A stretch of 64,000 nt of DNA from positions 169,374-233,373 of the forward strand of contig DATION010000002.1 in assembly GCA_035473115.1 (NCBI GenBank). Reading direction: 5' to 3'. The notes under the pieces are model-generated. The model saw nothing but the letters and a program-made list of their open reading frames with translations. It did no database searches and was not told where the DNA came from. The stretch comes from Candidatus Udaeobacter sp. Lineage in GTDB: Bacteria; Patescibacteriota; Patescibacteriia; Magasanikbacterales; GWA2-37-8. Shown one piece after another: positions 641-51,767 of this stretch; position 1 is the first letter of the stretch, and each line of letters opens with the position of its first letter. A program made the translations under genes and the position numbers.

Positions 641-837
641 GGTTGTTCTCCTCTTGGTTTAGAATACCCTAGAGAATAGTTATTTGGCAAGTCATTAAAC
701 GATCTTTCATTTTCCTACTTGTAAGAGGTAAGAATATAAATGGATCGTGCGAGCTTCCGAGAGCTCGCACCTGGAGCTCGGACTGCATAGCCTTGCTTCG
801 CCATTGGCGAATCAGGCACATGCCGTGTCCAAGCTGA

Positions 838-1521
838 CTACTGGGGCGTTCCTCCAGTCTTCGGAGCGACTGAGAAAGGAAAGAGGAGCCTTGAGGTTTT
901 GTTACCGGAACCGCCGATGGTCACGGCCGTTCCGGTGTCGTTTTTCCTTCCAGTGAAGAGATCGGTTTCCGTAACCACATGGACAGTCAGACGGCGATCA
1001 GTCGCTGCGAGCTGAGCTGCCAACTTGGTGTTGGCGTACCTCAGACCAGCGATGTCTGCAGTCGTTTTCTCCGCGCCGGCCTTTAGCTCGGCGACGTCTG
1101 CTGTTGCCTGGTCGGCGCTTGCCTTCACCTCGGCGACGTCTGCTGTTGCCTGCTCAGCCGCGGCTTGAGCCTTGGCAGCATCGGCGACACCTTGGTCAGC
1201 GATCACTTTGGCGGCCGCGGCATCGGCGACGCCTTGGTTGGCCGTGGTTTGGGCGGCCGCGGCGGCAGTGGTAGCGGCCGCGGCGTTCGCGGTAGCCTTG
1301 GCAGCTTCGGCCTTGGCATTGCTGGCCATCGTCTGAGCTTCAACGATTTGCGCATTGAGCCCATTGTACGCCGTTGCAGCGATCAAGATGAGAATAGCCG
1401 CTCCGGCGACAACACCTGCGATCCAGACGATGACCTTCTTGTGATCGGAGGAGCCTCGAACCTCCATGGTCTGCGACGGATCCGGGCTGGACGAGAGATT
1501 CGGGTCAGGGTTTGGCGACAT
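838..1521 (-). CDS. membrane-anchored Ala-rich coiled-coil repeat protein, hypothetical
   Basis: One TM helix followed by 14-residue periodic A/D/Q-rich repeats. AAGGAG lies 9 nt upstream of the ATG at 1521; the ORF could extend to TTG at 1542. High GC. Confidence 0.5.
   Translation of the reverse strand: MSPNPDPNLSSSPDPSQTMEVRGSSDHKKVIVWIAGVVAGAAILILIAATAYNGLNAQIVEAQTMASNAKAEAAKATANAAAATTAAAAAQTTANQGVADAAAAKVIADQGVADAAKAQAAAEQATADVAEVKASADQATADVAELKAGAEKTTADIAGLRYANTKLAAQLAATDRRLTVHVVTETDLFTGRKNDTGTAVTIGGSGNKTSRLLFPFSVAPKTGGTPQ
1088..1261. repeat. 42-nt (14-codon) tandem repeats inside the coiled-coil gene
   Basis: Units at 1088-1111 and 1130-1153 are near-identical, as are units at 1178-1219 and 1220-1261. 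Confidence 0.7.
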
Positions 1522-9148: not shown

Positions 9149-9158
9149 ATATGTTTAC

Positions 9159-9195
9159 TGTCATCCCGAGCGAGGTCTTAACCGACGAGGGATCT
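9159..9195. repeat. TGTCATCC...GGATCT dispersed repeat, copy A
   Basis: tgtcatcccgagcgagg...cgacgagggatct. Shares termini with the copies at 11612, 35585 and 37330. Confidence 0.6.
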
Positions 9196-9347: not shown

Positions 9348-10013
9348 CTAGAAGACCTGCGGCCTTCTGCTTCCTTGCCGATAAATACAAGCTCGCGGTT
9401 CCCATTCCTCTAGCTGTTCTATCGGGAAGAACATCTCGCAGTTGCCTTTTTGGTGAAGCACGATCACATCATCAACATCTGTCATTGCTGAATCCAGAAT
9501 AACATTCACTCTCGGCAACCTACCTTCGGCTGCCTGAGATTCAGTACCTGCAAACAAACGCACCTTATCACAGTACAAGCTTTCGCTTGGTCGCCTGCAC
9601 TCACCCGGCTTGAAAGCAATAGTTACGTCAAAGGTAACTTCTGCATCCTCAGGAGCTTGGAAATAGAACATGTTACGGTTACCATCAACCGTATTCAGGT
9701 AGACAAAATCTACGCTAAAGCCACCGTTTACGTTGATGACACTGGCTCCGACCCTGGGCCAACCTCCCGAAGGTGGGTTTACCACTTCTAGGTGGTACAC
9801 CTTCATGATTTCTGGCGGGGTTCCCGCATCTGCTGGCACTCCCGTATCCTCCACACTGGCACCTGCCGGCACTGCGGCATCCCTCATCTGGATGTCTGGT
9901 AACACTTGCGTTTCATTATCCTTGCCTTTACACCCGTCTGCCATGATCAACGCAATGATCACAGCCGCAACGATAATGAGCGACTTCCTTGAGAGGTTCT
10001 GCAGCATGCGCAT
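9348..10013 (-). CDS. secreted lipoprotein, hypothetical (Cys-containing, elevated GC)
   Basis: Signal peptide with lipobox LIMADGC. AAGGAG SD 4 nt before the ATG. A TTGACA-17 promoter-like sequence lies upstream. Confidence 0.65.
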   Translation of the reverse strand: MRMLQNLSRKSLIIVAAVIIALIMADGCKGKDNETQVLPDIQMRDAAVPAGASVEDTGVPADAGTPPEIMKVYHLEVVNPPSGGWPRVGASVINVNGGFSVDFVYLNTVDGNRNMFYFQAPEDAEVTFDVTIAFKPGECRRPSESLYCDKVRLFAGTESQAAEGRLPRVNVILDSAMTDVDDVIVLHQKGNCEMFFPIEQLEEWEPRACIYRQGSRRPQVF

Positions 10014-10170
10014 TGAACTCCTTTAAATTGATACCAGAACCGTTCTGGCAAACGCCGCCAACTAATAGGCGGACAAAATAAAGTACCATAAAAGTAATTT
10101 TTTGTCAAAGGTAATTTATGTAAAATAACGATGAATTGCTTTTGCAATAAGTTTCTGCTAAAATGCAAAA

Positions 10171-10617
10171 ATGATTACCAATCTTGCCGAAAATAAAAAG
10201 GCGCTATTTGACTATGAAATCCTGGAAAAATACGAGGCTGGTTTAGTGCTGTCCGGACAAGAAGTAAAATCAGCTAAAGCTGGTCAAATTAACCTAAAAG
10301 GGTCATATGTAACTTTTCATGATGGCAAAGCTTTTGTTTTGAATATGCATATCACCAAATATAAGCCGGCCGGTCCTCTCCCCGACTATGATCCAACCCG
10401 AACTCGCCAATTACTTCTACACAAAAAAGAAATAGCTTATTTACAGGGAAAATCGCTGGAAAGGGGCTTGACAATAGTGCCTTTAAAAGTGTATACTAAA
10501 CAACGCTTGATAAAGATTGAGGTCGCAATTGCCAAAGGACGCAAGAATTACGACAAAAGAGAAGTCATTAAGACCAGAGAATTAAAAAGAGAACTTGATC
10601 GAGCAAGAAAAAATTAG
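10171..10617 (+). CDS. smpB: SsrA-binding protein SmpB
   Basis: N-terminus KKALFDYEILEKYEAGLVLSGQEVKS is typical SmpB, 148 aa. Confidence 0.9.
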   Translation: MITNLAENKKALFDYEILEKYEAGLVLSGQEVKSAKAGQINLKGSYVTFHDGKAFVLNMHITKYKPAGPLPDYDPTRTRQLLLHKKEIAYLQGKSLERGLTIVPLKVYTKQRLIKIEVAIAKGRKNYDKREVIKTRELKRELDRARKN

Positions 10618-11009
10618 GGGGTGCCGGGCCTTCGACAGAAGCTCCTGGCTACACTGGCATACCGAGGCGGCTCGCAGCCTTGTAAAAAACAGAGCAATAT
10701 AATAAGTGCAAACTTATTTACAAAAGCTAAAGTTGCTGTAGCAAATTTATTTGCTGTTAGCGCTTTCGCTCCGGTAATGGCTTAATACCCAATACCCATC
10801 GCGCCAATGATACTCTGTAATTGGTTAGCGGTGTCACTAACAGAGAGTAGTTCTGCCGCAGTGTCGTCTGCGACAAAATGAAATTCCAACGACTCGTCAA
10901 TGCAATTTTCGTCCCCTTCTATTGCGTTGACTAAAAAACAAGGGACACTAAGTATGTAGAAGGTTTAGTCAAAGTTATCTACACGCGAGTTCAACTCTCG
11001 CCACCTCCA
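10617..11009 (+). ncRNA. ssrA: tmRNA (ssrA)
   Basis: The 5' GGGGGUG pairs with the 3' CACCUCC to give an acceptor stem with a G3:U70 pair. A T-arm gcgag-ttcaact-ctcgc precedes it. It lies directly after smpB. The candidate tag ORF ends ...FAPVMA-TAA at 10783-10785. Confidence 0.7.
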
Positions 11010-11045
11010 CGACGCTGAGCGTCGTAATAGGAACGCTTAGCGTTC
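11010..11045. promoter_or_regulatory. twin palindromes ACGCTGAGCGT / ACGCTTAGCGT spaced 21 bp centre to centre
   Basis: cgACGCTGAGCGTcg-taatag-gaACGCTTAGCGTtc, immediately 3' of tmRNA and 5' of infC. The same pair occurs at 50369-50404. Confidence 0.6.
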
Positions 11046-11061
11046 CACAACACTTCGCCCT

Positions 11062-11607
11062 ATGCGTATATCACACAAAAAACATAAACCCGAGCCAAAA
11101 AAAACATACTTTTTTAATGCGGGCATAACTGTTCCGGAAGTTTTGGTCTTAAATAATGATGGAACAAATTTGGGAGTAATGAAGCCGGTTGATGGCGTGC
11201 GTTTGGCCAAAGAACAAGAATTAGATTTGGTTCTAATTAATCCAAAAACAACTCCACCAGTCGCAAAAATTATTGATTTTGGACAGTTTAAATACCAACA
11301 AGAAAAAGAAGAGCGTTTAAAACAAGCTCATGCTCATGTCACTGAAGTAAAAGGAATTCGCTTATCTCTACGCATCAGCCCGCACGACATGAAGAATAGA
11401 GAAAATCAGACTATAGAATTTTTAAATGATGGCGACAAAGTTAAAATAGAGATATTTTTAAAAGGCCGAGAAATGCAGCAAAAACAGATGGCTCGCGAAA
11501 TAATTGAAAAATTTATAAACAACGTCAACATTTTAGTGCCAGTTCGCAAAGATCAAGAAATAGAATCACAATTTAATAAAGTGACAGCAATTATCGCGAA
11601 GCGATAA
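11062..11607 (+). CDS. infC: translation initiation factor IF-3
   Basis: IF3 N- and C-domain pattern (VLVLNNDGTNLGVM...). First gene of the infC-rpmI-rplT operon order. Confidence 0.85.
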   Translation: MRISHKKHKPEPKKTYFFNAGITVPEVLVLNNDGTNLGVMKPVDGVRLAKEQELDLVLINPKTTPPVAKIIDFGQFKYQQEKEERLKQAHAHVTEVKGIRLSLRISPHDMKNRENQTIEFLNDGDKVKIEIFLKGREMQQKQMAREIIEKFINNVNILVPVRKDQEIESQFNKVTAIIAKR

Positions 11608-11611
11608 TCAC

Positions 11612-11643
11612 TGTCATCCTGAGGTTATAAACCGAAGGATCTC
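11612..11643. repeat. TGTCATCC...GGATCT dispersed repeat, copy B
   Basis: tgtcatcctgaggttataaaccgaaggatctc, directly after the infC stop. Confidence 0.55.
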
Positions 11644-11655
11644 TAAGTTATAAAT

Positions 11656-11853
11656 ATGCCTAAACTAAAAACCCACAAAGCCACAGCCAAGAGATATAAG
11701 CTGACAAAAAATGGAAAAATAATGAAACGTACAGCCGGACAAAACCACTTTAACGCCAGAGAAAATGGAAAAACAGGCCGCAACAAAAAATCCGATGTGG
11801 TTGCCAGCCAAAGTTTACGCCGAGTAATGCAAGTAAATTTACCTAACAGCTAA
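11656..11853 (+). CDS. rpmI: 50S ribosomal protein L35
   Basis: [25 protein letters not shown] is the L35 signature. Confidence 0.9.
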
Positions 11854-11947
11854 TTTAAAATAAATATATAGGCCAAAAGGCATATATTCTCATTCGCTCG
11901 AGAAAGGATTAAACACATTTAATCTTTTTACTCACTCACTTTCGAAT

Positions 11948-12292
11948 ATGACAAGAGTTAAAGGTGGTCTTCTCCACTCCAAACGCCGCCGCGGAATTTT
12001 AAAACATACCCGTGGTTTTAAATGGGGCAGAAAATCCAAAATCAAAGTAGCCAAAGTTGCTAAAATGAAGGCTGGTCAGCACGCTTTCTCCGATCGCCGT
12101 CAAAAAAAGCGCACCAACCGAGGCATCTGGAATGTTCGCATCAACGCAGCAGTCAGAGAATTCGGATTAAGCTACAGCAGACTCATTGACGCTCTCAAGA
12201 AAAATAACATTGCCCTTGATAGAAAAATTTTAGCGGAATTGGCAGAAAAACACGGCTCCGTGTTTGCCAAAATAGTAGAATCCGTAAAATAA
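11948..12292 (+). CDS. rplT: 50S ribosomal protein L20
   Basis: MTRVKGG...RRQKKR..WNVRINAAVRE is the L20 signature. Confidence 0.9.
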   Translation: MTRVKGGLLHSKRRRGILKHTRGFKWGRKSKIKVAKVAKMKAGQHAFSDRRQKKRTNRGIWNVRINAAVREFGLSYSRLIDALKKNNIALDRKILAELAEKHGSVFAKIVESVK

Positions 12293-12594
12293 ATATTCAC
12301 AGCCCAGACCCTTGACAGCAAAAAATAAAATTAGTATACTGTTTAAAACTTAAAGGCCCTGATGATGTTTGGTATCAGAAGGAATCGTACCCTCCTTCGA
12401 TTTCTTTTCTCTTACCAAACACTATCGGGGTCTTTTTTGTTAGTGACGAGATTATCAGAAGTGAAACATAGTGATAATCCGTCTGGCTAACAATGACACC
12501 CAAACGGCGCTGTTAGCGCCCAAAATTTATGAATACATTTGTCTTTTATTTTTTTATACTGTAAGATTAAATAATTAGAATTTTTAACAAAAAT

Positions 12595-17997: not shown

Positions 17998-18033
17998 AAA
18001 TTATATATAATTAAATTAATATATACCCGACCT

Positions 18034-21006
18034 TTACTTATTGATTTTAAAATTTGCTATTGAATTTACGATCTCGTCAAATCTGCTTTTATCGCCGGAA
18101 ATTTCTATTACATTACGGCTATTTTTAAATCCATTCGGATATAATTCAATAGATTTTCTAAAACCGCCGCTGGCTAATTCTATATTATCAAACACTTTTG
18201 CTTGATATCCGTTCCAAACTGTTGTGGTTGATAAATTAGAACTGGAATTAGCTGAGCCGTCATGCTGAGAAATAATGAAGAAATGAGTTTGATAATCCTG
18301 GCTGCTAAATTCTATTCTTTTTTCTTTATGAGAAACAGCCCACGAAGCAGGATAAAAAATACTAAATTTCACAAAACTATCTTCATTATAAATTGATTTC
18401 TGCTGATCTTTTTCTTCTGTAAATTCTTTAATTAATTCCTTTTTTAACTGAGATTTAGCCACAGCCAATTGATTAGCTATTTCTATCTGTGAATTTTGAA
18501 CGGATAGTTTGCCACCAATATTTTGGCAATTATAACCACCCAAAACAGTAACTAACCCTAATACTCCGAAAATTAAAAGCATTTTGGAAGCGCTGGCTAG
18601 TTTAATGAAAGCGTTTGGTTTAACGGCAACTTTCTTTTCCATCATGGCTATGCGTTCACGGGTTTTAAGAGTTGTATCCGGATTAAGTGAAATACTATCT
18701 ATACCCTCTTGCACCAAAAATTCAGCAAATTCCGGATAATCACTTGGCGCTTGGCCGCAAATACCGACTTTGCGCTTATTTTCATGAGCAACTTTTATTA
18801 CTTGGCGAATCAAAGTTTTTACTGCTTCATTTTTTTCATCATAAACATGACTGACCAAAGCTGAATCTCTGTCCACACCCAAAGTAAGCTGGGTTAAGTC
18901 GTTTGAACCAATACTAAAGCCGTCAAAAATCTCACAGAATTCTTTAGCCAAAATTACATTGGCCGGAATTTCACACATTACATAAACTTTTAAGCCATCT
19001 TTTCCGCGTTCCAAACCAAATTCTTTCATGGTGGCTAAAACTTTTTTACCTTCTTCTATAGTGCGACAAAACGGCACCATAATAATCAAGTTCTTCATCC
19101 CCCATTCATTTCGTACTTTTTTGATGGCCTCGCATTCAAGTTTAAATCCAGGTTTATATTTTTCATCATAGTAGCGAGAAGCGCCGCGCCAGCCGATCAT
19201 TGGATTTTCTTCTTTCGGTTCGTAATTCTTACCGCCGATAAGAGTGGCGTATTCATTGGTTTTGAAATCAGACAAACGAACAATTACGTCGTTAGGAGCA
19301 AAAGCTCCGGTAATAAAGGCGATACCTTCGGCTAATTTATCAACACAAAATTTAGCTTTATCTTTATAGCCGACTGTCAACGCATCGATCTTTTCTTTTA
19401 TATCCGGAGATTGGTCTTTGTAATTGACCAGCGCCAAAGGATGAATTTTAACAAAATTGGTAAAGATAAATTCTTCTCGCGCCAAACCAACGCCATCATT
19501 TGGTATATTGGCCAAAGAAAAAGCGCTGCTTGGATCACCAATATTCATCATTACTCTGGTGCGAGTAGCGGAAACATTTTTGATTTCGGTTTTATTGACT
19601 TCAAACGGTAATAAGCCTTTATAAATATAACCGGTGTCGCCTTCGGCGCAAGAAACTGTAATTTTTTGGCCATTTTTTATCAGTTGACGAGCTTTGGCAG
19701 CTCCGACAACACATGGCGTACCTAGTTCACGGCTCACAATAGCGGCATGAGAAGTTTTGCCGCCTTGTTCGGTTACTATGGCGCTGGCCATGCGCATAAT
19801 TGGCTCCCAATCCGGATCAGTAATGCGAGTAACTAAAACCTCTCCTGCTTTAAATTGCTTCATCTGCTTTGGCGAATTTATTACTCTGGCATTGCCTTGA
19901 CCAATTTTTTGACCAACACTTGAACCAGTAAGTAAAACTTCACCTTTCTGTTTTAGCTGGTATTGTTCAATAACATTTATCTTGGCTCTGGATTTAACTG
20001 TTTCCGATCTGGCCTGGACAATAAAGAGCTTGCCGGTAGTGCCATCTTTGGCCCATTCAATATCCATCGGATGACCATAATGTTCTTCTATGATTACACC
20101 CCATTTAGCTAACTGCAAAACTTCATCATCGGTTAAGCAATATTGTTTTTGATCGGAAGTTTTAACTTTTTCCTGTTTGGTACCAACTGCACCATAAACT
20201 AATTTAACCTCTTTACTGCCCAAATGCTTGCTGATAATAGATTTAAAGCCATTTTTTAAGCCTTCTTTAAATACATAAAATTGATCTGGAATAACCTGGC
20301 CTTTAACAACATATTCGCCCAAACCATAAGCGGCATTTATTAAAACTACGCCTTTAAAACCAGATTCGGTATCCAAAGTAAACATGACGCCACTGGCGCC
20401 AACATCGGATCGCACCATTTCTTGTACGCCCACAGACAAAGCAATGGCTGTATGATCAAAACCTTTATCTTCACGATAAGAAATCGCTCGATCTGTAAAT
20501 AGAGAGGCAATGCATTTTTTGGCGGCCAGTAATAACTCTTTATCACCGCGAACATTTAAATAAGTTTCTTGCTGTCCGGCAAAACTGGCATCAGGCAAAT
20601 CTTCGGCTGTGGCGCTGCTGCGCACAGCGACGTCTAAATTAGTTTTCTTGGCTGACTTACAAAGTTCTTTATAAAAATTCTTAATTTCTTGTTCAATATT
20701 TTTGGGAAAAGTTGCGGCCAAAATCATTTTTCTAATTTTGCTGCCGACTCTTTCTAATTCTTTAATATCTTTTTTATTCAAACCGCTTAAAACTTCTTTA
20801 ATTTTTTTATCCAATTTATTTTCACTCAAAAAAGACCGATAGGCTTCAGCTGTTAAAGCAAACCCATTTGGCACTGGCACGCCTTTGGATTTTAACTTGG
20901 CGTACATTTCTCCCAGAGAGGCGTTTTTGCCGCCTACGGAAGGAATATCATTGATGGTAAGATCTTTGAACCAACTTATATACATAGTGAATATATTATA
21001 CCACAA
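18034..21006 (-). CDS. ppsA: phosphoenolpyruvate synthase (pyruvate, water dikinase) with ~190-aa C-terminal extension containing a TM segment
   Basis: Phospho-His motif GGKTSHAAIVSRELGTPCVVG, an ATP-grasp N-domain and a PEP-utilising C-domain. After ...NPDTTLKTRERIAMMEKK the ORF continues through MLLIFGVLGLVTVLGG into an unknown domain. Confidence 0.85.
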   Translation of the reverse strand: MWYNIFTMYISWFKDLTINDIPSVGGKNASLGEMYAKLKSKGVPVPNGFALTAEAYRSFLSENKLDKKIKEVLSGLNKKDIKELERVGSKIRKMILAATFPKNIEQEIKNFYKELCKSAKKTNLDVAVRSSATAEDLPDASFAGQQETYLNVRGDKELLLAAKKCIASLFTDRAISYREDKGFDHTAIALSVGVQEMVRSDVGASGVMFTLDTESGFKGVVLINAAYGLGEYVVKGQVIPDQFYVFKEGLKNGFKSIISKHLGSKEVKLVYGAVGTKQEKVKTSDQKQYCLTDDEVLQLAKWGVIIEEHYGHPMDIEWAKDGTTGKLFIVQARSETVKSRAKINVIEQYQLKQKGEVLLTGSSVGQKIGQGNARVINSPKQMKQFKAGEVLVTRITDPDWEPIMRMASAIVTEQGGKTSHAAIVSRELGTPCVVGAAKARQLIKNGQKITVSCAEGDTGYIYKGLLPFEVNKTEIKNVSATRTRVMMNIGDPSSAFSLANIPNDGVGLAREEFIFTNFVKIHPLALVNYKDQSPDIKEKIDALTVGYKDKAKFCVDKLAEGIAFITGAFAPNDVIVRLSDFKTNEYATLIGGKNYEPKEENPMIGWRGASRYYDEKYKPGFKLECEAIKKVRNEWGMKNLIIMVPFCRTIEEGKKVLATMKEFGLERGKDGLKVYVMCEIPANVILAKEFCEIFDGFSIGSNDLTQLTLGVDRDSALVSHVYDEKNEAVKTLIRQVIKVAHENKRKVGICGQAPSDYPEFAEFLVQEGIDSISLNPDTTLKTRERIAMMEKKVAVKPNAFIKLASASKMLLIFGVLGLVTVLGGYNCQNIGGKLSVQNSQIEIANQLAVAKSQLKKELIKEFTEEKDQQKSIYNEDSFVKFSIFYPASWAVSHKEKRIEFSSQDYQTHFFIISQHDGSANSSSNLSTTTVWNGYQAKVFDNIELASGGFRKSIELYPNGFKNSRNVIEISGDKSRFDEIVNSIANFKINK

Positions 21007-25065: not shown

Positions 25066-25072
25066 TAAAAAT

Positions 25073-26212
25073 CTATACTGCGCGCATTGCCAAACCGATA
25101 GCCACAGACATCCGAGGCCCAATTTGACGCAAAACAGGCTTTAAACCGTCCTGATAAACTACTCTGGCCCAAGCATCACCGACATAACATTTAATCTTGA
25201 ATTTATCTTGAATATATTTTGCCAAAAACGGCATCAGGGCTATGCCGCCGGTCAAAATTATTTTTTCCGGACGCTTGCCTTCGTTGCCGGTCTGGCGCAA
25301 ATATAATTCCAGACTTACTTCAATTTCTTTAAAAATAGGATCTATGACCGGCATCAAGATATCCAGCCATTTTTGTTCGCTCAAAATATTATTATTGCCA
25401 GCGGCCAGATAATCGAACATATCATACTTAATCTGCCCAACTAGGTCGTGTTCCACGCCTAAAATATTTTGCAAAATTTTATCTATCTTATCGCCTCCAG
25501 ATTCAATACTTTGGTGCGTAATCGGCACTCCCTGATCAACTATAAAAAAGTTGGTTCTCTCTGAGCCAATATCTATAATCATTGCCACTGCCTGATCGCG
25601 GCCGATTAGGGCTCTGGCCAAAGCGGTAGATTCTGGTTCCAGAGCTTCTAATGACAGGCCCGCGCGCTGAAAAATCTTAGAATAAAATTCTATCATTTTG
25701 TGCGGCACGGCATTGAGTAAAATACGCTGAGTTTTATCTTCGGAAGAACTTTTTAAAATTTGATAATCCAAAGCCATTTCTTCTAGCGGCATAGGCAGAA
25801 GTTTTTTTACTTCCGCTTTCACCAAATGATCTAATTCATCTTTTTTGACAATCGGCAAAGTTACCACCGCGTGAAAAACAGAAGAAACCGGCAGGCTGAC
25901 TACGGCTGTTTTAGAAAGTATTCGTGAAGTTTTGCAGATTGTTTTTATAGCCGAAGCATACTTGTCTATCTGAGCTTCTGCTAATTGGTCAGTCGGAGCG
26001 GCCGTGATTTCTTTTTTGGCTGAGTTTGAGCCAACAAGACTGGCAATGTTTTTTTCTTCGTTAACTAAAAGTTTATGGACATCCTGTTTATTGGAAGTCA
26101 AGCCATAAGAAAACAAAACCGGCCTATTTTTTTCTAGGCGTAATTCAACCATTTTTATTCCGCCGGATCCGATATCAACTCCCAAATAAGATTTTTGTTT
26201 TTTCCAAAACAT
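25073..26212 (-). CDS. pilM: type IV pilus assembly ATPase-fold protein PilM
   Basis: N-terminal YLGVDIGSGGIKMVEL actin-like fold. Conserved position next to the pilin gene. Confidence 0.8.
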   Translation of the reverse strand: MFWKKQKSYLGVDIGSGGIKMVELRLEKNRPVLFSYGLTSNKQDVHKLLVNEEKNIASLVGSNSAKKEITAAPTDQLAEAQIDKYASAIKTICKTSRILSKTAVVSLPVSSVFHAVVTLPIVKKDELDHLVKAEVKKLLPMPLEEMALDYQILKSSSEDKTQRILLNAVPHKMIEFYSKIFQRAGLSLEALEPESTALARALIGRDQAVAMIIDIGSERTNFFIVDQGVPITHQSIESGGDKIDKILQNILGVEHDLVGQIKYDMFDYLAAGNNNILSEQKWLDILMPVIDPIFKEIEVSLELYLRQTGNEGKRPEKIILTGGIALMPFLAKYIQDKFKIKCYVGDAWARVVYQDGLKPVLRQIGPRMSVAIGLAMRAV

Positions 26213-33128: not shown

Positions 33129-34736
33129 ATGTCTACAATTTACCGTAAATACCGCCCGCAGAAATTTGCTGACATTGTTGGTCAGCAACATATTATCAAA
33201 ACAATTACTAACGAAATAACTAGCGATAAGATTGCCCACGCTTATCTTTTTTCCGGTCCACGCGGCACTGGCAAAACCACTCTAGCTCGCCTGTTGGCTA
33301 AATCTATAAATTGTCAAGATCGTAAAAAAGATAAATTTGAACCTTGCGGTACTTGTTCGGCTTGTACGGAAATTACTAACAGCCACAGTATTGATGTTAT
33401 CGAAATTGATGCTGCCAGCCATACTGGTGTAGATAATGTACGCGAAAATATTATCGACAACGCCCAATTTAAACCAACTAAACTAAAATACAAAGTATTT
33501 ATCATCGACGAAGTCCACATGCTTTCCACCAGCGCTTTTAACGCTCTCTTAAAAACATTAGAAGAACCGCCAAGCCATGTGATTTTTATTCTGGCCACTA
33601 CCGAACAGCACAAACTGCCGGCTACCATTATCTCTCGCTGCCAACGATTCAGCTTCAAACGAGTTGGCTACGATGATATGCTTGGGCGGCTGGAGGAAAT
33701 CTGCAAAAATGAAAAAATAAAAATTGATAAAAAAGTTTTAGAAAGAATCATCAACAAAAGCGATGGCTGCATGCGCGATGCCGAAAGTTTACTTGGGCAA
33801 GTCTTAAGTTTGGATCTAAAAAATATTTCTGCCGAAGACGCCGAGATGATCTTGCCAACTTCTAATGTTGAAACAGTGCTGGAATTTATTAATTTTATTT
33901 TAGAAAAAGAAACCAGCTCCGGCCTAAAATTAATTAATCAGCTGGTTGGCGACGGCGTAAATCTGGAGCAATTTGTTTATGACTGTTTAGAAGTCTTGCG
34001 CCTACTGATGATTTTGCAAATTGATTCGCAAACAAAAAATATTAATACCGATTACAGCGCCGAAGCTGTCAAAACACTCAAAAAACTATCAGCTAAAATT
34101 TCTGCGCCCCAACTAATAAAAATGATTGAATCATTGATTGCTCGCCGCCAAGAAATAAAATCTGCGCCAATGCCACAGCTGCCTTTGGAATTATTTATTG
34201 TGGAATTTACTTGCGCCCCTGACATATCAAATTCCGATATATCAGCTGTAATTCCGACGAAGAAAGAGGAATCCCTGTCTGGTAAGGAAAAAGAAATGGA
34301 CAGAGATCCCTCGTCAGCTAAAGCCTCGCTCGGGATGACAGCCTTGCCAGAAAAACATCACTCCATTTCTCAAACCATAAAAGATGCCGTTTCTTCTATC
34401 ACTCACGGAGCGCCAATTAAAACAACTCTGGAAGAAATAAAAGCCAAATGGGATGAATTAATCCAAGCCATTGCCAAAGATAACCATTCCTTGGGTTTTA
34501 TCTTAAAAATGTGCAAAATTGAAGATATCAGCAACGACGGACTGCGTGTATCTGTCCCCTATTCTTTTCATAAAGACAAACTGGACGAAAATAAAACCAA
34601 AAAAACTATCGAGCAATACTTGACTGACTTTTTCTCTGAACGAATAATGCTGCACTGCGAAGTTTTGGAAACTGTAAATGAAACTAACGACGAATTAAAT
34701 AAATTAGCCGCTGATTTCGGCGGAGAGGTTATCTAA
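33129..34736 (+). CDS. dnaX: DNA polymerase III subunit gamma/tau
   Basis: GPRGTGKTT Walker A, Zn module CQDRKKDKFEPCGTCSAC and DEVHMLS. Confidence 0.9.
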   Translation: MSTIYRKYRPQKFADIVGQQHIIKTITNEITSDKIAHAYLFSGPRGTGKTTLARLLAKSINCQDRKKDKFEPCGTCSACTEITNSHSIDVIEIDAASHTGVDNVRENIIDNAQFKPTKLKYKVFIIDEVHMLSTSAFNALLKTLEEPPSHVIFILATTEQHKLPATIISRCQRFSFKRVGYDDMLGRLEEICKNEKIKIDKKVLERIINKSDGCMRDAESLLGQVLSLDLKNISAEDAEMILPTSNVETVLEFINFILEKETSSGLKLINQLVGDGVNLEQFVYDCLEVLRLLMILQIDSQTKNINTDYSAEAVKTLKKLSAKISAPQLIKMIESLIARRQEIKSAPMPQLPLELFIVEFTCAPDISNSDISAVIPTKKEESLSGKEKEMDRDPSSAKASLGMTALPEKHHSISQTIKDAVSSITHGAPIKTTLEEIKAKWDELIQAIAKDNHSLGFILKMCKIEDISNDGLRVSVPYSFHKDKLDENKTKKTIEQYLTDFFSERIMLHCEVLETVNETNDELNKLAADFGGEVI

Positions 34737-36485: not shown

Positions 36486-37280
36486 TTACTTAATTTTTCT
36501 CCCCTCCAAAAATAAAAATAAAGGAAATTCTTTTCGTGCTTTATCTTCCGCCGCAAAACGTGGCCCTCTAGTTGGCTCACGGTGCGAAATCCATTCTTCC
36601 AGCTTGGCTACCGCAAAACCATTTTTGCGCAGCATTTTAAAATACCATTGCAATGATCGGTGAAACGAAACTGTTTTTTCTGATTGTTTCTTGCCCGGAT
36701 TCATATCTATTTCTGTTTGGAATTCCGATAAATACGCATCCATACGGCGATACTGAATTTTGGCTTGCTCATCCCACTGCCAACTGGAAACTTTGGGCGC
36801 GCGAAAGGCTGGGTGGTTTAAAACCAAAAATATACTCCCCTTTTCTTTTAAGACTCTGGCGCACTCGGCTAATACGCCATCCACATTTTTTATATTCTGC
36901 AAAGCTAAAATTATTGTAATAGAATCTACGGATTTATCGGCACAAAAATTAATTTTATCCGCTGGCGATACGTGGTATTCAATATTTTTTGATTTAGCGA
37001 AATCATGCCGCGTAACGTCATTTGAAACGCGGCGGCTCTTGGCGATTTGGATAAGTTCCGGAGAAATATCCGAAGCAATAACTTTGGCGCCGCTTTGCGC
37101 AAAAATACGGCTAAAAAATCCTTGGCCGCAAGCCAAATCTAAGACTATCTGGTTTTTGTCCAAAGTCATTGAACGGATTAAATTTGGCAAAATAACTTTC
37201 TGCTGAAAAGAATCATCGTCTTTCTCTAGCATGCTATCATACCAATTGGCTACTTTGCCCCAAGAAGTTTGTTTTTTCAT
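36486..37280 (-). CDS. class I SAM-dependent methyltransferase
   Basis: Motif I VLDLACGQGFFS with an acidic-loop D after beta2. Carries the in-frame insert ...TRHDFAKSK.... Confidence 0.8.
   Translation of the reverse strand: MKKQTSWGKVANWYDSMLEKDDDSFQQKVILPNLIRSMTLDKNQIVLDLACGQGFFSRIFAQSGAKVIASDISPELIQIAKSRRVSNDVTRHDFAKSKNIEYHVSPADKINFCADKSVDSITIILALQNIKNVDGVLAECARVLKEKGSIFLVLNHPAFRAPKVSSWQWDEQAKIQYRRMDAYLSEFQTEIDMNPGKKQSEKTVSFHRSLQWYFKMLRKNGFAVAKLEEWISHREPTRGPRFAAEDKARKEFPLFLFLEGRKIK
36985..37033. repeat. in-frame palindromic mini-element, copy 1 (inside methyltransferase gene)
   Basis: tttgatttagcgaaatcatg followed by hairpin gccgcgt-aacgtcatttga-acgcggc. Same element in secA (44056-44106) and at 51657-51697. 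Confidence 0.7.
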
Positions 37281-37329
37281 ACCCCTATATTCTAAAGTAA
37301 AAAATCTTATGGGTCAATCTGTCATCCTG

Positions 37330-37403
37330 AACGCAGTGAAGGATCTCTCTCAGTTCAATGTTAAGGGATTCTTCGTTGCACTCAGAATGACAAATAAGCT
37401 CTA
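37330..37403. repeat. TGTCATCC dispersed repeat, copy D (full ~74-bp imperfect palindrome)
   Basis: tgtcatcctgaacgcagtgaaggatctc...gggattcttcgttgcactcagaatgaca. Outer inverted repeat gtcatcctga/tcagaatgac. Confidence 0.6.
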
Positions 37404-43327: not shown

Positions 43328-46129
43328 TTAAGCTCCATGGCATTTTTTGAATTTTTTTCCGCTTCCGCATGAACACAAATCATTGCGGCCGATAACTTTT
43401 CCTGATTCATCTGTTTTTTTACCGGTAGCAATATGAGTTTCTTCACTACTGCTAGTTTTGGCAGCGCCGCTGAAGTTTAGCGCGTTACTATTCATTACCG
43501 ATGGCGCCATTTGAATCCCCAGATTAACTTTATAAATCAGATAAACAACTTCTTTTTGAATAAAATTAATTAGTTCATTAAACATGCGGAAAGTTTCTTT
43601 TTTGTATTCTACCAGTGGATCATGCTGGCCATAACCGCGCAGTCCTATACCGGTACGCAAATAATCTACGGCCACCAAATGTTCTACCCACAAATTATCT
43701 ATAGCGCGCAACAAAACCTGTTTTTCTATTTCTAGCAACATCATTGGATCAGGCACAGTCTTTTCTAGTAAAGTTTCATATTTTTTATTAGCCAATTCCA
43801 CCAAATAGTCGATTATTTTATTGCGCAATTCAATATCATCTAACTTTTCTCCTCTGGCTCCGGAAGCTAATTCTTCAATTGTTTTTCTTTCTTCATCGGC
43901 TAATGGGAAAATTGTAGTTATGGTCTGAGTTATTTCTTTGACGTTCCATTCTTTTCTATCTTCGGTATTGGTATGAAACGAGATTACCTGTTCTATTTCT
44001 TGCTCAATCATATCCAAAATCATTTCCCGCATGGTTCTGGAACCTTCCGGCAAAGTTTTATTTGATTTAGCGAAATCATGCTGGGTAGCGTCCATTGAAA
44101 CCCAGCGCTTTTCCATTTCAAACGCGTTTAAAATTTCTCGGCGCTTGCCATAGATAACTTCACGGTGACGATTTAATACATCATCGTATTCCAACAAATG
44201 TTTACGGGTATCAAAATGAATGCCTTCCACTTTTTTCTGGGCGGATTCTATAATACGAGTAATCATCCCCTGCTCTATCGGCATATCATCGGGAACTTTT
44301 AAAGTTTCCATTACTTTGCGGATACGATCACCGGCAAAAATACGCATTAAATCGTCTTGGGTAGAAAGATAAAATTGCGATTCACCCGGATCACCCTGAC
44401 GGCCACTGCGGCCGCGCAGCTGATTATCGATACGGCGACTTTCGTGGCGTTCAGTACCAATAACATGCAGACCACCGGCAGCGCGCACTTTTTCGGCTTC
44501 AGCCGGATCTGGCGGATTGCCGCCTAAAATAATATCCACACCGCGGCCAGCCATATTGGTTGCTAAAGTAACTGCGCCAGCGCGGCCAGCTTGAGCAATA
44601 ATCTCACCTTCACGTTCATGATTTTTGGCGTTTAAAATTTCATGCTTGATTCCTTCTCTTTCCAAATACAAACTAAGCTCTTCGTTTTTATCAACGGCAA
44701 TTGTACCAATCAAAACCGGCTGGCCTTTGACCTGTAATTCTTTTACTTTCAAAGCAATCGCTTTGTATTTTGCTTCTTCAGTTTTATAAATTCTGTCCGG
44801 ATAATTTATTCTTTGATTTTTTCTGTTTGGCGGAATAACTACTACTTCTAATTTATAAATTTTACCAAATTCTTCCGCTTCGGTAACCGCGGTACCAGTC
44901 ATGCCGGATAATTTTTCGTAAAGACGGAAATAATTTTGGAAGGTAACCGTAGCCATAGTCTGGCTTTCTTGCTGAATCTTTACGCCCTCTTGAGCTTCTA
45001 TAGCCTGGTGCAGACCTTCGCTGTAGCGGCGGCCAGGCATTTTGCGGCCGGTAAATTCATCAACGATTATTACTTCGCCATTTTCTACGATATAATCGCG
45101 ATCTTTTTTAAATAAAGCATAAGCGCGCAAAGCTTGTTCTAAGTGATGAACGGTTTTAATGCCGCCTTCGGCATAAATATTGTCTATGCCCAACATTTTT
45201 TCCATTTTGGTTATACCAACTTCGGTAAGCGTGGAGGAACGCATTTTTTCATCAACATTATAATCTTCATTTTCTTTTAATTTTTTTACCAAATCGGCAA
45301 ACTGATAATACATGTCAGCCGCTTCTTCGGCTGGAGCAGAAATAATTAGCGGGGTGCGAGCTTCATCAATTAAAATCGAATCAACTTCATCAACAATCGC
45401 AAAATAAAACGGCCGTTGAGACATCTCGGCTTTATTTTGCACCATATTGTCGCGCAAATAATCAAAACCAAATTCATTATTGGTGCCGTAAGTAATATCA
45501 CAAGCATAGGCTTGCTGACGAGTACAAGCTTCCAAATATTCTGTTTCCACTTTAAACATGCCTTTGGCATCACGCTCTTTATCTGGCGCGCTGCCTTCGG
45601 ATAAATCTTCTTCCGGCTTAATTGATTTTTGGGCGTTATATTTAAATGAAACTAATTGTTGTTGGATAATACCAACGCTTAGTCCAAGAGCGTCATAAAT
45701 TTGACTCATCCAAACTGCATCGCGTTTAGCCAAGTAATCGTTGACAGTGACCACGTGCACGCCTTTGCCGGCTAAAGCATTTAAATATATTGGCAAAGTT
45801 CCCACCAAAGTTTTACCTTCACCGGTGCCCATTTCGGCAATACTGCCGCGATGCAAAACAACACCACCGATTAGCTGCACATCAAAATGACGCATGCCAG
45901 TCAAACGCTTGGAAGTTTCGCGGACAACCGCAAAGGCTTCGGGTAAAATATCGTCTAAAGTTTCACCATTAGCCAAACGGCCTTTAAATTCATCAGTTTT
46001 GCTGCGCAAATCAGCCAAAGTTAATTTGACCATTTCCGCTTCTAATGAATTTATTTTTTCAATTATCGGCTGGATACTCTTGACCACTTTGGCGTTGGGG
46101 TCTCCAAAAATTTTGGTTAAAAATGACAT
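43328..46129 (-). CDS. secA: preprotein translocase ATPase SecA
   Basis: MGTGEGKTLV Walker A, DEAD-like motor domains, C-terminal Zn finger CSCGSGKKFKKCHG. Contains the in-frame insert ...TQHDFAKSNK.... Confidence 0.95.
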   Translation of the reverse strand: MSFLTKIFGDPNAKVVKSIQPIIEKINSLEAEMVKLTLADLRSKTDEFKGRLANGETLDDILPEAFAVVRETSKRLTGMRHFDVQLIGGVVLHRGSIAEMGTGEGKTLVGTLPIYLNALAGKGVHVVTVNDYLAKRDAVWMSQIYDALGLSVGIIQQQLVSFKYNAQKSIKPEEDLSEGSAPDKERDAKGMFKVETEYLEACTRQQAYACDITYGTNNEFGFDYLRDNMVQNKAEMSQRPFYFAIVDEVDSILIDEARTPLIISAPAEEAADMYYQFADLVKKLKENEDYNVDEKMRSSTLTEVGITKMEKMLGIDNIYAEGGIKTVHHLEQALRAYALFKKDRDYIVENGEVIIVDEFTGRKMPGRRYSEGLHQAIEAQEGVKIQQESQTMATVTFQNYFRLYEKLSGMTGTAVTEAEEFGKIYKLEVVVIPPNRKNQRINYPDRIYKTEEAKYKAIALKVKELQVKGQPVLIGTIAVDKNEELSLYLEREGIKHEILNAKNHEREGEIIAQAGRAGAVTLATNMAGRGVDIILGGNPPDPAEAEKVRAAGGLHVIGTERHESRRIDNQLRGRSGRQGDPGESQFYLSTQDDLMRIFAGDRIRKVMETLKVPDDMPIEQGMITRIIESAQKKVEGIHFDTRKHLLEYDDVLNRHREVIYGKRREILNAFEMEKRWVSMDATQHDFAKSNKTLPEGSRTMREMILDMIEQEIEQVISFHTNTEDRKEWNVKEITQTITTIFPLADEERKTIEELASGARGEKLDDIELRNKIIDYLVELANKKYETLLEKTVPDPMMLLEIEKQVLLRAIDNLWVEHLVAVDYLRTGIGLRGYGQHDPLVEYKKETFRMFNELINFIQKEVVYLIYKVNLGIQMAPSVMNSNALNFSGAAKTSSSEETHIATGKKTDESGKVIGRNDLCSCGSGKKFKKCHGA
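44056..44106. repeat. in-frame palindromic mini-element, copy 2 (inside secA)
   Basis: tttgatttagcgaaatcatg followed by hairpin gctgggt-agcgtccattga-acccagc. The stem differs from copy 1 by two compensatory base-pair changes. Confidence 0.7.
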
Positions 46130-51398: not shown

Positions 51399-51653
51399 TT
51401 AGGAAAGGTGTTTGGAAACAAGTTTAGTCATTTCAAACATGTTTACTGTTGCCTTACCGCCAAATACTACTTTTAAAGCAGCATCAGCGTTGATATTGCG
51501 CTTATTTTTTTGATCTTGAAGATTTTTACCCTTGATGTAAGCCCATAATTTTTTTACCACTTCAGAACGTGGCATAGGACCTGGACCGACGACAGCGGCT
51601 AATTCGGCGCTGACGTTCATCGGCTTCATAAACGCGGAGTTTGCTTTTGGCAT
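51399..51653 (-). CDS. SWIB/MDM2 domain protein
   Basis: LAAVVGPGPMPRSEVVKKLWAYIKGKNLQDQKNKRNINAD...MFEMTKLVSKHL is a SWIB signature. Confidence 0.8.
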   Translation of the reverse strand: MPKANSAFMKPMNVSAELAAVVGPGPMPRSEVVKKLWAYIKGKNLQDQKNKRNINADAALKVVFGGKATVNMFEMTKLVSKHLS

Positions 51654-51656
51654 AAC

Positions 51657-51697
51657 TTGTTTTATTTAGCGAAATCATGTCCTGATTAAACTAGGAC
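51657..51697. repeat. palindromic mini-element, copy 3 (intergenic, immediately 5' of SWIB start)
   Basis: gttttatttagcgaaatcatg followed by hairpin gtcct-gattaaact-aggac. Confidence 0.55.
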
Positions 51698-51767
51698 GCT
51701 GACTTCTATTAGTAAATATAGTAATTTAAGTATAGCAGCTATTCTAGAATAGCGCAACTGACCAAGC

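Follow-up and report, generated by a model that had tools for sequence, protein, structure and literature searches.

Repetitive extragenic palindromic (REP) sequences are short, GC-rich hairpins dispersed between genes; they are co-transcribed with their neighbours, keep their structure by compensatory change and can stabilise mRNA. Bypass elements, such as the gap of T4 gene 60 and the mitochondrial byp elements, are hairpin-containing coding inserts of ~50 nt whose nucleotides, rather than codons, matter. The element described here lies in a 64-kb stretch of contig DATION010000002.1 (the window; gene maps here and at the other loci are simple longest-ORF maps), where one copy is read in frame within the gene of a class I S-adenosylmethionine (SAM)-dependent methyltransferase (MTase). 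Like the Rickettsia palindromic elements (RPEs), it is a short hairpin repeat found both between genes and in frame within unrelated housekeeping genes, with one frame of the repeat in use. The translational fusions formed by RPEs appear compatible with the host fold (PMC10969869). RPEs are set apart by their description as elements of ~100-150 bp in Rickettsia (PMC10969869), whereas the present unit measures 45-47 nt and belongs to Patescibacteria. Its coding copies are also a minority, and the typical copy adjoins a start codon at a fixed 1 nt. The element is a dispersed structured repeat able to sit in frame, with an unusual coupling to start codons.

An earlier note on this DNA had drawn attention to the MTase segment. 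It missed the main point, namely that coding copies are a rare class and that the usual place of the element is non-coding, directly 5' of start codons. The flagged segment is judged probable to be an ectopic, translated, in-frame copy of a propagating cis-acting RNA leader module. We infer that the element acts as RNA in cis from its orientation bias, covariation and start-codon coupling. A cis-acting RNA at the coding region's 5' edge is argued for by a sense bias that follows the gene, compensated helices, a conserved loop 1 and helix 2, the fixed 1-nt distance to the AUG and retention at the starts of core genes.

An exact scan for the 20-mer CATGATTTCGCTAAATMAAA across one genome per species returned 45 loci, against ~2 expected by our own estimate under uniform base composition, and a metagenome scan anchored on hairpin 1 returned at least 120. 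Nearly all of the 45 loci are in metagenome-assembled genomes (MAGs) labelled Nomura-, Zambryski-, Taylor- or Magasanikbacteria, Paceibacterota, Minisyncoccia or Patescibacteria, taxa to each of which NCBI gives the rank of a candidate phylum within the Parcubacteria group. A few element-bearing MAGs are labelled ‘Saccharibacteria’ or ‘Gammaproteobacteria’ (loci L009, L011, L014 and L041); these labels, given as deposited, look unreliable. The MTase of the window (P0001) was likewise deposited as ‘Candidatus Udaeobacter sp.’, yet its close homologs and its synteny are all from the Candidate Phyla Radiation (CPR), and this label looks unreliable too.

Two large samples were used, both pattern-selected: a tail-anchored set (45 loci) and a hairpin-1-anchored set (61 copies). 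The first search pattern (..AAATCMAAA) left out the commonest ending, AAATCA-Y-ATG, and enriched atypical copies; because of this bias about a quarter of the first set lies inside genes, and almost none of the second. The shortest form of the unit is 45 nt, and stem subfamilies are genome-specific. Density is about one copy per 10-20 kb of fetched DNA; the window has three, and other loci have about one each. Tandem copies 72 nt apart, antisense to the neighbouring genes, occur at L032 (260-384) and L101 (10239-10363) and are atypical.

The family does not correspond to any catalogued RNA. At the gathering threshold, Rfam 15 covariance models matched only the transfer-messenger RNA (tmRNA) and two tRNAs across the whole window, and permissive scans of two copies gave chance-level matches only (E of at least 1.2), which sets aside riboswitches, leaders and other known RNA families. 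A phage origin was rejected since the IMG/VR viral collection holds no element match. No paper was found that contains the element sequence or its peptide, or that describes such a repeat in CPR bacteria. The family is widespread in Patescibacteria of the Parcubacteria group and apparently undescribed so far. Against their usual definitions, three further classes were set aside: differences between copies are not adenine-specific, as for the template and variable repeats of diversity-generating retroelements; the two separate hairpins are not the single R/L-box hairpin of an integron attC site; and there are no arrays as for CRISPR repeats.

Hairpin 1 consists of a 7-bp GC-rich stem and a conserved loop of ~13 nt (..YAAWGGACG..). 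Hairpin 2 is TGATTT-CGNN-AAATCA, in which the 4-nt loop is free to vary after CG. Across 42 tail-anchored copies hairpin 1 is 97.6% paired, with double changes at six of its seven pairs; none of 500 shuffles was as good, and no slid register came close. Hairpin 2 was selected on in the tail-anchored set and so is invariable there; it was measured in the hairpin-1-anchored copies, where the unselected 3' arm is complementary in 61/61 (58 TGATTT/AAATCA, three TGATTC/GAATCA, none uncompensated). In a 67-copy alignment this helix is 99.8% paired with double changes at three of six pairs, and the further variants CGATTT/AAATCG and CGTTTT/AAAACG occur, the latter in L056. Loop 1 and helix 2 are near-invariant in sequence across the separate candidate phyla. 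Minimum-free-energy RNA folding reproduced both hairpins in the secA copy of the window and in a canonical copy; for the MTase copy it recovered the proposed hairpin 2, and the hairpin-1 segment folded into a hairpin with a different pairing.

The loop of hairpin 1 carries GGACG in roughly 35 of the 45 tail-anchored copies (counted by eye), ~28 nt before the ATG. As in CsrA/Rsm sites, a GGA is thus placed in a hairpin loop near a translation start. The element has no second GGA, and no CsrA-like sequence was detected in 1.28 Mb of element-bearing contigs, which are fragments of many genomes. Presentation of GGACG, which resembles GGAGG, as a Shine-Dalgarno (SD) sequence is not supported, as it lies inside a stem-loop, ~12 nt from the element AUG and ~28 nt from the gene AUG; no 16S rRNA 3' end was found in the DNA covered.

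The coupling to start codons is close. In 50 of the 61 hairpin-1-anchored copies an ORF has its ATG no farther than ~3 nt from where hairpin 2 ends (one overlaps the last base), and in 36 of them the spacing is exactly 1 nt (AAATCA-N-ATG; range 0-3, mode 1). This spacing puts the element's own AUG (cAUGauu) 18 nt upstream of the gene AUG and in frame with it. The upstream side is variable, with a same-strand stop within 5 nt of hairpin 1 in only 6 of 52 assessable copies; an exact stop-to-start intercistronic spacer, a first impression gained from the biased sample, is ruled out by this count. Sense copies outnumber antisense ones 12:1 inside genes and 23:3 between co-directional genes. A replication-strand bias as the source of this asymmetry is contradicted by locus L044, where two copies on opposite DNA strands are each sense to their own host gene.

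The genes downstream are diverse, encoding ribosomal proteins, EF-Tu, SecE, RpoC, DnaJ, PyrF, PPDK, RNase H, pilins and small membrane proteins, and many are translation genes. As a group they are functionally incoherent, which speaks against a riboswitch or a gene-specific cis-regulator. The element recurs at orthologous starts in different genomes, namely those of secE (57-82% identity), tuf, rpsL, rplL and rpsE, and the stems there differ by compensatory changes while the flanking proteins diverge. In locus L056 (5400-7950), an array of five paralogous genes for small membrane proteins with two transmembrane segments was observed, three of which are preceded by a copy 1 nt before the ATG; one of these copies has a doubly compensated hairpin 2, CGTTTT/AAAACG.

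Across the ORF starts of the window (e.g., those of 18033-20985 and 25072-26212), an SD-like core stands before no more than 8 of the 57 ORFs, so SD-less initiation is the norm in its genome, and a TATAAT is found 8-16 nt before several ATGs. These sequence features suggest that leaderless or short-leader mRNAs may be widespread in this genome. The element was also considered as a sigma-70 promoter or a leaderless start site, and rejected on its spacings: the best -10-like hexamer, TAAAAT/CTAAAT, stops just 3 nt short of the ATG and is separated by 12-13 nt from the -35-like TTGCGC. Known leader and intercistronic mRNA hairpins, such as 5' stabilisers and processing sites, are similar: they too are structures on the sense strand that stand immediately upstream of the AUG in many genes, often ones with high expression, here in an SD-poor genome. 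They differ in being gene-specific rather than a dispersed, sequence-conserved cassette, and to our knowledge none occurs in frame inside genes.

The copy that was flagged (c1; 36990..37035, minus strand) lies in the gene of the 264-aa MTase, an ORF at 36486..37280 (minus strand) with matches to Pfam Methyltransf_11/25/31 and 4189 homologs. Its 45-nt unit, a covariance-model match, is composed of CC, hairpin 1, a single A and hairpin 2. Hairpin 1 (37007..37033, minus strand) has the 5' arm GCCGCGT (37033-37027), the 13-nt loop TTCAAATGACGTT (37026-37014) and the 3' arm ACGCGGC (37013-37007). Hairpin 2 (36990..37005, minus strand) comprises TGATTT (37005-37000), the loop CGCT (36999-36996) and AAATCA (36995-36990). 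A second copy (c2; 44063..44108, minus strand) is found in secA, an ORF of 933 aa at 43328..46129 (minus strand) with SecA Pfam domains, and reads GCTGGGT-TTCAATGGACGCT-ACCCAGC-A-TGATTT-CGCT-AAATCA. The earlier note counted these two; there are in fact three. The third (c3; 51659..51702, minus strand) is degenerate and intergenic, and lies upstream of a gene with a SWIB Pfam domain (51399-51653), ending ~10 nt from its ATG. It has a 5-bp stem (GTCCT/AGGAC), a loop that lacks GGACG and a broken hairpin 2 (AAATAA).

In the repeat search, 36985-37034 pairs with 51657-51679 and, at 84% over 50 nt, with 44058-44107. The claim that the MTase and secA segments are the same element is borne out by this identity and by the tail GCATGATTTCGCTAAATCAAA that the two have in common, identical at 21 of 21 nt. 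Their 7-bp stems, GCCGCGT/ACGCGGC and GCTGGGT/ACCCAGC, differ at two pairs, both compensated, and both helices covary across the family. The exact 16-mer CATGATTTCGCTAAAT occurs three times in the window, always on the minus strand; at up to three mismatches shuffled sequences give a mean of 1.64 matches, and the sole additional match in the window has three mismatches. The window repeat is real and not a chance match. A covariance model run on the whole window, with E-values that are rough, recovered c1 at 68.3 bits (36987-37038, E 4.8e-14), c2 at 69.5 bits and c3 at 30.5 bits (E 2.9e-5); every other match had an E of at least 1.5. The element leaves the 264-aa MTase ORF in frame, as had been stated. 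It is read there as (S)RRVSNDVTRHDFAKS, within the encoded stretch ..SRRVSNDVTRHDFAKSKNIEY.. between helix 74-82 and strand 100-104, and in c2 the same frame gives (K)RWVSMDATQHDFAKS.

Both host genes have relatives that lack the insert. Among 26 aligned MTase homologs, most of 251 aa, 21 are without the segment, including the closest (88% by BLASTP, 91% in the alignment); it is therefore not a structural element conserved in all members of the family. At the same place, P0005 and P0020 carry related inserts. Ortholog DNA on syntenic contigs has empty sites in P0002, P0003, P0026 and P0034, a diverged copy in P0005 and a decayed one in P0020. Relative to the insert-less orthologs the net gain is 36 nt (12 aa), not the 18 aa of the earlier note. 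About 9 nt of native sequence has been replaced: the native CAY GCN TCA AAA, which partly resembles the element tail, stands against CAT GAT TTC GCT AAA TCA AAA in the element. In secA the comparison is simpler. In the syntenic relative L053 (Parcubacteria group bacterium Gr01-1014_13), SecA has 918 aa and is 89% identical, with a single 15-aa gap. The filled site reads GAAAA, then the element from GCGCTGGG to GCTAAATC, then AAATAAA, and the empty one GAAAA|AAACAAG, a clean 45-nt gain in an A-run. No target duplication was seen between the empty and filled secA sites; the seven A's are divided 4+3. The SecA insert region is ~29 residues longer than in M. tuberculosis SecA1 and solved SecA structures.

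Structural models with and without the MTase insert place it between the same helix (74-81/82) and following strand. In the AlphaFold model with the insert a 17-residue connecting loop has a per-residue confidence (pLDDT) of 57-60 over the insert, and in that of an insert-less ortholog a 6-residue loop has a pLDDT of ~88. The MTase model (AF2) has an ordinary class I SAM-MTase fold, with 3g5l and 3bkw as the best solved matches. The insert is thus modelled as a low-confidence loop between conserved helix 74-82 and strand 100-104, longer by 12 residues. Unrelated-looking inserts occupy the same loop (alignment columns 94-107) in the more distant homologs P0036, with PGEQGRHAQEKNQ, and P0045, with SPEATADGGQAKQDK; these might be older, decayed element copies.

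The age of the MTase insertion is less clear than the note's ‘recent’ spread implied, since related copies stand at the same codon position in two other lineages (75-81% protein identity), one of them decayed. In a neighbour-joining tree built with the insert columns removed, the insert-bearing sequences are scattered, each beside an insert-less sister, which could reflect repeated gains, transfer of alleles or a precise loss and argues against a single old insertion. Against this stands the junction geometry that the window and P0005 copies have in common, together with an unusual T-A closing pair, which suggests from sequence that these two are of common origin. Either one origin followed by allele transfer or loss, or repeated gain at the same site, would account for the MTase site. 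Near the P0020 MTase, L050 (~9600-12350) has extra genes, standing between others that are collinear with L049, for a rolling-circle Rep-like protein (REP_ORF2-G2P) and a large serine recombinase; this looks like an integrated mobile element that L049 does not have.

The genes with in-frame copies encode SecA, two MTases, FtsK, UvrD, TatD (in two genomes), TrmD, an O-antigen-ligase-like protein and others. All internal copies have the 26-nt form of hairpin 1, and hence a unit of 45 nt or 15 codons, and all use one sense frame, frame 0 (..R-H-D-F-A-K-S..), a rule that is partly circular as internal copies were recognised by their open frame. The 27-nt form of hairpin 1 has a TAA in the host frame. 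Of the six frames of the consensus only sense 0 and +1 are generally open, the antisense frames being closed by the tail or by a TGA in the loop. That the shortest form is exactly 15 codons and free of stops in one sense frame makes the element able to sit inside genes.

Within these genes the nucleotides have been kept better than the peptide. Between the window MTase and its L047 ortholog, nucleotide identity is 87% in the element and 75% in the rest of the gene, third positions are identical at 13/15 vs 52%, and amino acids at 67% vs 82%. For TatD of L036 and L044 the corresponding values are 91% vs 73%, 15/15 vs 51% and 80% vs 75%. Pooled over these two orthologous pairs, third positions are conserved at 28/30 in the element and 259/502 in the rest of the genes (Fisher p = 2e-6). 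Amino acids have changed where pairing was restored: in hairpin 2, TTC>TCC is accompanied by AAA>GAA (F>S with K>E), and in hairpin 1, CGC>GGC by CGG>CCG (R>G with R>P). Since third positions are kept while amino acids change, it is the nucleic acid that persists and not the peptide; the covarying helices and these third positions uphold the view of a propagating and/or selected nucleic-acid module. This conservation could come from selection in place, from gene conversion by other copies or from re-insertion at the same site. A recombination tract around the coding copies was rejected, flank identity not being raised.

On the explanation favoured here, the module would be a leader structure adjoining the AUG on its own mRNA, in genomes that seldom use SD sequences. 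Candidate roles are endonucleolytic processing just 5' of the AUG, stabilisation at the 5' end or between cistrons, and presentation of the start site in SD-poor mRNAs, with recognition by a putative conserved CPR factor. New copies would be made by a copy mechanism without target duplication that prefers A-rich sites. Those landing in genes would survive only as the 45-nt form with an open frame in a tolerant loop; the survivors would be translated (..RHDFAKS..), with nucleotide sequence and structure, not the peptide, still maintained. In the MTase, a 45-nt stop-free copy would have landed in a Rossmann-fold loop and been read through, adding 12 residues. A bolder version, which we rate as possible but less likely than not, is that of a conserved, self-propagating RNA ‘start-codon cassette’ distributed across several candidate phyla of the Parcubacteria group and read by a dedicated CPR factor, marking or processing mRNAs 5' of the AUG. 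Cleavage after hairpin 2, for example, would give near-leaderless cistrons in SD-poor genomes, and copies inside ORFs, maintained and translated, might act on the mRNA through processing, pausing or internal initiation.

Several points weigh against a cis-acting leader RNA. Its three supports, orientation, covariation and start coupling, could each come from recognition of single-stranded DNA combined with purifying selection on tolerated sites, and the excess conservation of the coding copies could be due to gene conversion or to repeated insertion at one site, not to selection in place. Certain copies are found in 3' untranslated regions (3'-UTRs), with a terminator-like hairpin 5-8 nt after them (L008 5224-5310, L016 4977-5060, L039 7333-7420); these are either simply 3'-UTR copies or, possibly, free-standing small RNAs with three hairpins. 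A few copies are antisense (L032, L017), and some decay, such as that of P0020 and c3 in the window; maintenance does not extend to every copy. The z-scores from folding are modest (-1.1 to -1.8). The evidence itself comes from two pattern-selected samples, crude ORF maps and taxon labels as deposited.

The most serious rival is a purely selfish, non-autonomous mobile DNA of the REP/RAYT (REP-associated tyrosine transposase), IS200/IS605-PATE (palindrome-associated transposable element) or RPE kind with no host function, which we regard as possible, if clearly the less expected outcome. The hairpins would then serve single-stranded-DNA recognition by a transposase encoded elsewhere, and the start-codon position and sense bias would reflect insertion preference followed by purifying selection, with antisense and out-of-frame copies lost. 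This accords with the presence/absence polymorphism among orthologs and the clean insertion without target duplication, with the many unrelated host and neighbour genes, and with genome-specific stem subfamilies. Tandem, antisense, 3'-UTR and decaying copies also suit it, as do the filling of the same MTase codon position in at least three non-sister lineages and the occurrence of in-frame copies in protein loops, as in RPEs (PMC10969869). The flanks of the copies are A-rich, which suggests a target preference; no fixed motif emerges from them. On the other side, the exact 1-nt ATG spacing in 36/61 is hard to obtain by tolerance alone, copies are kept with intact helices at orthologous gene starts while the proteins diverge to 57-72% identity, and loop 1 and helix 2 are near-invariant across candidate phyla. 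The L044 copies, on opposite strands and each sense to its gene, argue against a replication-strand bias. No transposase, reverse transcriptase or Rep gene was found in the annotated neighbourhoods, within ~60 kb of the window copies. The selfish reading remains compatible with polymorphism, decay and coding insertions, and it and the RNA reading are not exclusive.

The known classes of small mobile DNA fit in part. As in REPs and bacterial interspersed mosaic elements (BIMEs), there is a GC-rich hairpin, a mostly extragenic location and a structure kept by compensatory change; the differences are a much lower density, the lack of an inverted-doublet (REPIN) organisation, a second AU-rich hairpin, start-codon coupling, and a sequence conserved across candidate phyla rather than species-specific. 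Neither a RAYT gene nor a TnpA gene was found in the annotated neighbourhoods (window and ~20-kb loci for RAYT). The PATEs derived from IS200/IS605 are similar in their hairpins, the absence of terminal inverted repeats and target-site duplications, and strand asymmetry. They differ in that the present element is far shorter and is oriented by the gene and not by one DNA strand (L044); its flanks are A-rich, with no fixed tetra- or pentanucleotide target established. A classical MITE (miniature inverted-repeat transposable element) is dissimilar, as there are two independent hairpins whose ends (..GC-G[CT]CGCGC and AAATCA) are not mutual inverted repeats, and no duplication at secA. Target-site duplications and terminal inverted repeats were absent from the junctions and ends compared. 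The sequence at the MTase site, the one site from which this is drawn, hints at microhomology-guided copying, not cut-and-paste.

It is very unlikely that the in-frame copies escape translation through removal of the 45 nt from the mRNA or bypass by the ribosome. In favour, nucleotides and hairpins are conserved while amino acids change, and the 45-50-nt size and hairpin content resemble those of bypass elements. A bypassed gap need be neither open nor a multiple of three, whereas every insert here has a length divisible by three and stays open in the frame of its host (internal copies being recognised by that open frame), which points to read-through rather than bypass. Every internal copy has the 45-nt form, open and in the same frame, which would be needless if it were skipped, an argument that is partly circular since the copies were found by their open frame. 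No gene split into two ORFs by the element was seen, although no systematic search for such cases was made.

Equally improbable is a site acting at the DNA level, in which a dimeric global regulator would use TGATTT-N4-AAATCA as its operator and hairpin 1 would have no relation to it. Helix 2 is indeed palindromic (6+6) and near-invariant around a variable centre of 4 nt, and its spacing to the ATG is fixed. The double changes (TGATTC/GAATCA, CGTTTT/AAAACG, CGATTT/AAATCG) keep pairing, not sequence, the hairpin-1 arms vary freely yet remain complementary, and a strong strand bias is unexpected for a symmetric duplex site. Hardly credible at all is the suggestion that ..R-H-D-F-A-K-S.. is a functional protein motif from whose selection the DNA similarity follows: all coding copies do use the same frame and hence the same peptide, but most copies are non-coding, the peptide is conserved no better than the host protein in orthologous pairs while third positions are near-invariant, the insert is modelled as a low-confidence loop and the hosts are functionally unrelated.

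Much of bacterial diversity belongs to the CPR/Patescibacteria, and the organisation of their transcripts and their translation starts are barely known. The element is short, easily recognised and supported by covariation, and stands at a fixed distance from the starts of core genes (tuf, rpsL, rplL, secE) in SD-poor genomes. Its in-frame copies are a second independent example, after the RPEs of Rickettsia, of structured repeats colonising essential coding genes, with the new twist that the nucleotides are conserved while the peptide drifts. Annotation is affected as well, as the element gives annotated CPR proteins spurious insertions of 12-15 aa (‘RHDFAKS’) and extended N termini (‘MISLN[HQ]M’), and can mislead the calling of starts.

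Other features were observed in the window. A second palindromic repeat family is represented by TGTCATCCTGAACGCAGTGAAGGATCTC at 37320-37392, which faces a diverged inverted partner in the divergent intergenic region between the MTase and FolD genes; related 38-nt arms of this family, 89% complementary, lie at 9158-9195 and 34304-34341. The SmpB ORF (10170-10617) is directly followed by the tmRNA gene (10617-11012, 123.9 bits). Within the ORF at 837-1521 (minus strand), positions 1049-1327 hold tandem 42-nt coding repeats in three copies together with related 33-nt repeats, which give the protein a repetitive Ala-rich segment.

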